A DNA stretch of 64,000 bases, taken from assembly GCF_057098645.1 (NCBI RefSeq), contig NZ_CM169472.1. The stretch is one strand, 5' to 3'. Of the stretch, positions 31,992 to 32,570 are shown piece after piece; position 1 is the first letter of the stretch, and each line of letters opens with the position of its first letter. A program made the position numbers.

Positions 31992-32570
31992 CTATACTTA
32001 AGAGATGACAGGCGGACTTAACGACTGGCGGCAACAACAGAGTAACGGTTGCGAGGAAAGATGATGAAAACCGCAAAAGAGTACAGCGATACCGCAAAAC
32101 GTGAGGTCAGCGTCGATGTCGATGCCCTGCTGGCGGCGATCAATGAAATTAGCGAAAGCGAAGTTCATCGCAGCCAGAACGATTCTGAACACGTTAGCGT
32201 CGATGGACGTGAATATCATACATGGCGTGAATTGGCGGATGCCTTCGAACTGGATATTCATGACTTCAGCGTCTCTGAAGTGAATCGTTGAATGCACAAT
32301 AAAAAAATCCCGACCCTGAGGGGGTCGGGATGAAACTTGCTTAAGCAAGAAGCACTTAAAAAATTCGTTACACCAGGAAATCTGATGTGTTCATCACCTT
32401 ATCCGCAATTTTTTTCGCTGACAAGAAAATATTCGCTATATGAATGATTAACGCTACTTATGAATAGAAATGTGACGCACGTCACCCCTTGGTGGCTCTG
32501 GCGTCAGCGGGATCGCTCCCGAAAAAATCATCTTTGATTATTTGTGCTGTTTTGAGAATCATCCTGGTAA

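Follow-up and report, generated by a model that had tools for sequence, protein, structure and literature searches.

The stretch of DNA analysed here, 64,000 nucleotides of contig NZ_CM169472.1 (assembly GCF_057098645.1) and referred to below as the window, carries almost beyond doubt the dsrA gene on its minus strand, at 32301-32391. This gene encodes DsrA, an Hfq-dependent small RNA (sRNA), and its sequence is the one known from Escherichia coli K-12. It is an ordinary, known gene at its usual locus, and there is nothing new in the RNA itself. Its limits are as follows, RNA nucleotide n corresponding to window coordinate 32392-n throughout the text.

32301..32391, minus strand: dsrA transcribed region; +1 is the A at 32391, and the 91-nt K-12 annotation runs through the U-tract to 32301

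A sequence-only reading had already named this RNA and pointed to an alignment with the Rfam family RF00014 (DsrA) as the way to check it. Scanning the whole 64-kb window at Rfam gathering thresholds yields a full-length match to this family, which runs from 32391 to 32305 on the minus strand, covers model positions 1-85 of 85 and scores 102.5 bits for a gathering score of 60 (E 1.5e-18), thus exceeding the threshold by 42 bits. Only DsrA and RseX lie above the gathering thresholds in the window. The next best family in the dsrA region reaches 25.7, its own threshold being 49.5. The families anti-hemB, Betaproteobacteria toxic sRNA and EF3314_EF3315 were considered at this locus and dismissed, since their scores are far below their own thresholds.

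Comparison with the curated dsrA gene of K-12 MG1655 (b1954) leads to the same identification. In that genome, dsrA is a 91-nt ncRNA encoded by the minus strand at 2025223-2025313 of NC_000913.3, with yodD (b1953) and yedP (b1955) on either side, and all 91 nucleotides of window 32301-32391 are identical to it. The presence of the exact canonical 87-nt sequence, as initially stated, is borne out by this identity: the 87-mer occupies 32305-32391 and corresponds to the first 87 nucleotides of the MG1655 gene. The interval first assigned to it, 32306-32392, designates the right locus with coordinates shifted by +1, so that it includes the G at -1 and stops short of the last U of the 87-mer. Direct reading of window 32100-32700 places the start of the minus-strand sequence AACACATCAGATTTCCTGGTGTAACGAATTTTTTAAGTGCTTCTTGCTTAAGCAAGTTTCATCCCGACCCCCTCAGGGTCGGGATTTTTTT at 32391. 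The gene is present in a single copy, a 40-nt probe from its 5' part having one match without mismatches in the window and none in 100 shuffles. The RNA being identical to the characterised K-12 DsrA, its designation as a known regulator also holds.

The surrounding genes, taken from the ORF list and the RefSeq annotation of the E. coli O145 strain RM9872, which is 100% identical across window 31000-35200, are the following.

31046-31669, plus strand: rcsA
31713-31901, minus strand: dsrB
32064-32291, plus strand: yodD
32589-33404, plus strand: yedP
33401-35095, minus strand: dgcQ

Both sources agree with the location originally proposed for the RNA, on the reverse strand between yodD and yedP. 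dsrA is convergent with yodD and divergent from yedP, and the end of its U-tract lies 10 nt from the yodD stop. The order rcsA-dsrB-yodD-dsrA-yedP-dgcQ is common to K-12, the O145 strain and the Enterobacteriaceae genera. It had also been remarked that an ORF track cannot reveal such a gene; indeed, among the 15 listed complete E. coli genomes with an exact match, none has an annotated feature under dsrA. Routine RefSeq (PGAP) annotation thus leaves dsrA blank, and flagging it completes the map of the window.

The predicted structure of the RNA consists of three consecutive stem-loops (SL1 to SL3), the second of which is given below in two forms.

32370..32388, minus strand: stem-loop 1 (nt 4-22), a stem of 7 bp capped by the pentaloop AUUUC, from the minimum free energy (MFE) fold and the Rfam consensus structure
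32333..32366, minus strand: stem-loop 2 in its E. coli MFE form (nt 26-59), from the MFE fold
32336-32349, minus strand: short SL2 hairpin CUUGC-N4-GCAAG (nt 43-56, with 43-47 paired to 52-56), from RNAalifold
32301..32331, minus strand: stem-loop 3 (nt 61-85) followed by the T-run, a Rho-independent terminator, from the terminator scan and the MFE fold

The MFE fold of the 87-mer, with hairpins at nt 4-22, 26-59 and 61-85, has an energy of -31.9 kcal/mol, compared to -16.7 +/- 3.3 for 200 dinucleotide shuffles (z = -4.67), none of which is as stable. SL3 comprises 10 pairs, seven of them G-C, and a 5-nt loop. The terminator scan matches 32331-32307 with the tail TTTTTTATTG, and the run of seven Ts extends over 32307-32301, its first T also closing the SL3 stem. 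Of the three stem-loops plus terminator that had been read from the sequence, the stem-loops are all found, whereas the terminator is not a separate element: both the fold and the terminator scan identify it with the third stem-loop, which is also named as the terminator in the literature (PMC5766208). The structure of SL1 has been determined by NMR, and this stem-loop melts upon rpoS pairing (PMC5766208).

The proximity of SL3 to yodD, the hairpin lying 10-40 nt past the yodD stop codon (32291), would be compatible with a stretch that is nothing but a terminator, or a set of chance hairpins, belonging to the neighbouring protein genes and containing no RNA gene. The probability of such a situation is next to negligible. 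On the plus strand, the hairpin shared with dsrA is followed by GAAACTTGC and has no T-run, and no plus-strand terminator was found by the terminator scan at this position. A terminator would also leave unexplained DsrA nt 1-60, which match K-12 exactly and are strongly conserved from genus to genus, as well as the full-length Rfam score, and it is refuted by the identity to an experimentally characterised RNA gene. With dsrA retained as an RNA gene, the lack of a plus-strand terminator past yodD has another possible consequence, since yodD transcription may thus run antisense into dsrA.

Conservation within the species is very high. Of 5426 complete E. coli genomes, 5338 contain the 87 nucleotides, with at least 99% identity in 4973 of them and 95-99% in 365, almost always as one chromosomal copy per genome. 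Among plasmid sequences, PLSDB contains 15 records labelled as plasmids that carry dsrA, seven from E. coli at 100% identity and eight from Salmonella at about 91%; the eight that are listed measure 0.26-4.9 Mb, and 14 of the 15 are non-mobilizable. A mobile, plasmid-borne dsrA was rejected on the basis of these sizes, the records most likely representing chromosomes that were given the wrong label, or else very large (chromosome-derived) replicons.

Homologues beyond E. coli were collected with a 26-nt pattern, taken from the SL1 and linker sequence and run against one genome for each Enterobacteriaceae species, which yielded 75 loci and 70 distinct sequences from Escherichia, Salmonella, Citrobacter, Enterobacter, Leclercia, Lelliottia, Buttiauxella, Atlantibacter, Trabulsiella, Pseudocitrobacter and other genera. 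Nucleotides 5-30 are invariant among these homologues by construction and do not constitute independent evidence. Synteny extends across the genera: among the loci with enough flanking sequence, RcsA is found in 55 of 55, DsrB in 62 of 62, YodD in 64 of 67 and YedP in 49 of 63, with the same orientations.

Base pairing was compared over 71 Enterobacteriaceae sequences. For the whole structure, 88.7% of the cells are paired, compared to 28-45% when the partners are slid by 1-3 columns. In SL3, compensatory changes affect 5 of the 10 pairs, with 94.4% of the cells paired. In SL1, U22 of the pair 4-22 is kept while A4 and G4 alternate (51 AU and 20 GU); the other SL1 pairs are invariant because of the way in which the homologues were selected. 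The long E. coli form of SL2 is paired in 77.5% of the cells, several of its pairs being mostly broken, and RNAalifold retains only the short hairpin. The long form given by the E. coli MFE fold is therefore without comparative support, a result that touches a structural detail and not the identity of the RNA. It agrees with the two conformations of SL2 observed by NMR, several competing models of this stem-loop having been published (PMC5766208).

These comparisons also bear on the strand to which the conservation belongs. The ORF listing contains, on the plus strand opposite dsrA, a frame at 32337-32447 encoding 36 amino acids, so that a small protein could in principle be the conserved item. 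This appears less credible still than a stray terminator. The listing is purely mechanical, the frame begins with TTG, and inspection of the sequence reveals no ribosome-binding site upstream of it. Furthermore, the homologues have 1-nt indels in the linker and variable SL2 loops, which would shift the frame, and conservation follows RNA pairing, as illustrated by the compensatory changes in SL3, and not codons.

A core promoter can be proposed immediately upstream of dsrA.

32396..32424, minus strand: putative dsrA core promoter, read by eye and from conservation

It would consist of a -35 element TTGTCA (32424-32419), a 17-nt A-rich spacer and a -10 element TAAGGT (32401-32396). In other genera, the homologues are likewise preceded by a cTTGTCa motif and a TAnnnT hexamer, spaced as they are here. 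No promoter was reported by the sigma-70 promoter scan of 32000-32800, which missed this one because its -10 element TAAGGT has only 3 matches out of 6. The K-12 sequence is retained without change from -45 to +91, hence also in the core promoter.

Further upstream, the 297-nt spacer between yodD and yedP has 7 substitutions relative to K-12, all of them upstream of the dsrA +1. The nearest one, at -46 (window 32437, A for the G of K-12), is 22 nt upstream of the first base of the -35 element, just outside the core promoter. Such differences might leave dsrA intact, yet silent or differently regulated in the source strain. This is nevertheless highly improbable, given the identity from -45 onwards and the wide distribution of the upstream allele: the 66-nt upstream stretch with -46A recurs without change in no fewer than 733 complete E. 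coli genomes, O157:H7 included, and -46A is therefore a common natural allele. The megablast search behind this count returned 736 genomes, and 733 is a lower bound for the A allele and not a frequency, low-complexity masking of the A-run probably preventing seeding in the genomes with the K-12 G at -46. In addition, the literature attributes the temperature control of DsrA to its promoter itself as well as to RNA stability (PMC4152358, PMC6537650). Both promoter activity and RNA stability increase at low temperature, and acid pH is also inducing (PMC5766208, PMC4152358, PMC6537650). A dsrA gene that is intact and probably controlled as in K-12 is the reading retained.

The spacer between dsrA and yedP also contains a palindrome, GGTGA-CGTGCG-TCACA (32472-32487), 9 of whose 10 half-site positions follow the CRP consensus TGTGA-N6-TCACA. 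Its half-sites, 32472-32476 and 32483-32487, are kept in 6 Escherichia sequences (5 loci and the window) while the 6-nt spacer varies, and the palindrome is absent upstream of the homologues in the other genera compared. Its centre is some 88 nt away from the dsrA +1 and some 110 nt from the yedP ATG, on the upstream side of both. To our knowledge, no effect of this site on dsrA has been described. CRP binding at the dsrA-yedP spacer has been detected by ChIP-seq in the ETEC strain H10407, where it is listed under yedP (PMC4287617), and by in vitro Footprint-seq in K-12, where it is listed as dsrA / yedP (PMC12871828). A canonical DsrA placed under lineage-specific or CRP-dependent control in the O145-like lineage is a doubtful proposition, with a slim chance of being right, and would, if true, add only modestly to what is known of a well-studied system. 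The action of DsrA on the LEE pathogenicity island (LEE1), exerted via RpoS in both cases, is reported to be an activation in EHEC and a repression in EPEC (PMC12205375).

The regions of DsrA involved in pairing with the two mRNA partners considered here are located as follows.

32360..32382, minus strand: rpoS-pairing region (nt 10-32), 3' half of SL1 and linker, from duplex prediction
32349..32361, minus strand: hns-pairing core (nt 31-43, UUUUAAGUGCUUC), from sequence complementarity

Complementarity was computed on the K-12 rpoS and hns sequences, the source strain's own copies lying outside the window. For rpoS, the calculation was made segment-wise with DsrA nt 1-36. Nucleotides 10-32 form with positions -119..-97 of the K-12 rpoS leader a duplex of 21 bp with one 2x2 internal loop and an energy of -26.4 kcal/mol, only 1 of 1000 segment shuffles being as good. 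For hns, UUUUAAGUGCUUC (nt 31-43) is the exact 13-nt reverse complement of K-12 hns +7..+19 (GAAGCACUUAAAA). Duplexes of full-length DsrA with 231 nt of the rpoS leader or 121 nt of hns were dropped, as they had large interior loops and were barely above shuffles. The 40-nt windows around the rpoS and hns sites match at 99% or more in 5411 and 5417 records, respectively, in the set of 5426 E. coli genomes. The two target sites being nearly invariant in E. coli, the source strain almost certainly carries both of them.

Transcription, Hfq dependence, temperature control and regulatory outcomes are inferred here from the identical K-12 RNA. DsrA would be transcribed from a sigma-70 promoter of its own, located immediately upstream, and would end at the SL3 terminator, with an expression expected to rise at low temperature and acid pH. 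Its nucleotides ~10-32 would pair with the upstream arm of the inhibitory rpoS leader hairpin, so that the ribosome-binding site would be freed and more RpoS translated. This corresponds to the anti-antisense mechanism described for DsrA and rpoS, in which pairing unfolds the hairpin that masks the ribosome-binding site (PMC5766208, PMC6537650); DsrA also shields the rpoS mRNA against RNase E and counters its early termination by Rho (PMC5766208, PMC4152358, PMC6537650). The linker and SL2, with nt 31-43 as a core, would pair just inside the hns coding region and repress H-NS, and the same region would act on mreB and rbsD, in keeping with the repression described for the pairing of linker 1/SL2 with hns, mreB and rbsD (PMC5766208). 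Hfq binds DsrA and speeds up target annealing (PMC5766208, PMC6537650). The A/U-rich linker and the 3' U-tract are present in the dsrA gene of the window, as in K-12.

As regards the strain itself, its chromosomal background is O145-like and not K-12. Window 11-43324 is 99.94% identical to RM9872 (NZ_CP028379.1), with 17 mismatches across 43.3 kb and 10 bases missing from the window in two gaps within its first 31 kb. The source strain is thus near RM9872, yet distinct from it in view of these gaps and mismatches. An assignment of the window to RM9872 itself was rejected: the identity ends at 43324, where it gives way to a P2-family prophage that is absent from RM9872 at this place. Two further loci, with coordinates transferred from the RM9872 annotation, were noted along the shared part. 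An intact porin gene (41128-42201, plus strand) stands where K-12 has the yedS pseudogene, and an espR3 type III effector pseudogene with an internal stop (18290-19429, minus strand) lies between yedL and fliE. Serogroup O145 includes attaching-and-effacing Shiga-toxin producers, and both loci are consistent with the background of an attaching-and-effacing lineage.

A second unannotated sRNA gene, RseX (RF01401), is found at 40727-40816 on the plus strand, with 99 bits for a threshold of 50. drpB lies on one side of it and the yedS-type porin gene on the other, an arrangement shared with K-12 (rseX b4603). The P2-family prophage starts inside hchA and extends over about 43322-64000, reaching the end of the window; it includes the following genes.

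43413-43664, minus strand: ogr-like zinc-finger gene
43722-44822, minus strand: late control gene D
45301-48378, minus strand: tape measure gene

The hchA ORF is cut to 182 amino acids (42793-43341), versus 283 in RM9872 (42793-43644). A prophage 99.9% identical adjoins ybjL in strain RM14721, and no one-piece match to the hchA-prophage junction was found among the complete E. coli genomes of the collection.

DsrA ties low temperature and acid stress to the control of the stress sigma factor RpoS, H-NS, capsule and virulence genes. This biology has been established on the identical K-12 RNA, and the present locus contributes nothing new in itself. Compared with K-12 DsrA (b1954, RF00014), the RNA, the promoter from -45, the yodD and yedP neighbours, the orientation, the stem-loops and the terminator are all alike; the differences lie outside the RNA, in the 7 upstream spacer substitutions and the O145-like background. 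DsrA from other Enterobacteriaceae shares the short SL2 hairpin, the G+C-rich terminator and the rcsA-dsrB-yodD synteny. It differs in the four variable positions that precede the conserved core, in the linker, one U shorter in most genera, in the hns-pairing UUUUAAGUGCUUC, altered in many of them (UUUCAAGUGCUUC), and in the sequences of the SL3 stem and loop, which diverge via compensatory changes. RprA and ArcZ were not found in the window by the Rfam gathering scan. These two further Hfq-dependent activators of rpoS translation obey the same anti-antisense logic on the same leader hairpin (PMC4152358; PMC3937726), but bear no relation to DsrA in sequence, locus or inducing signal.
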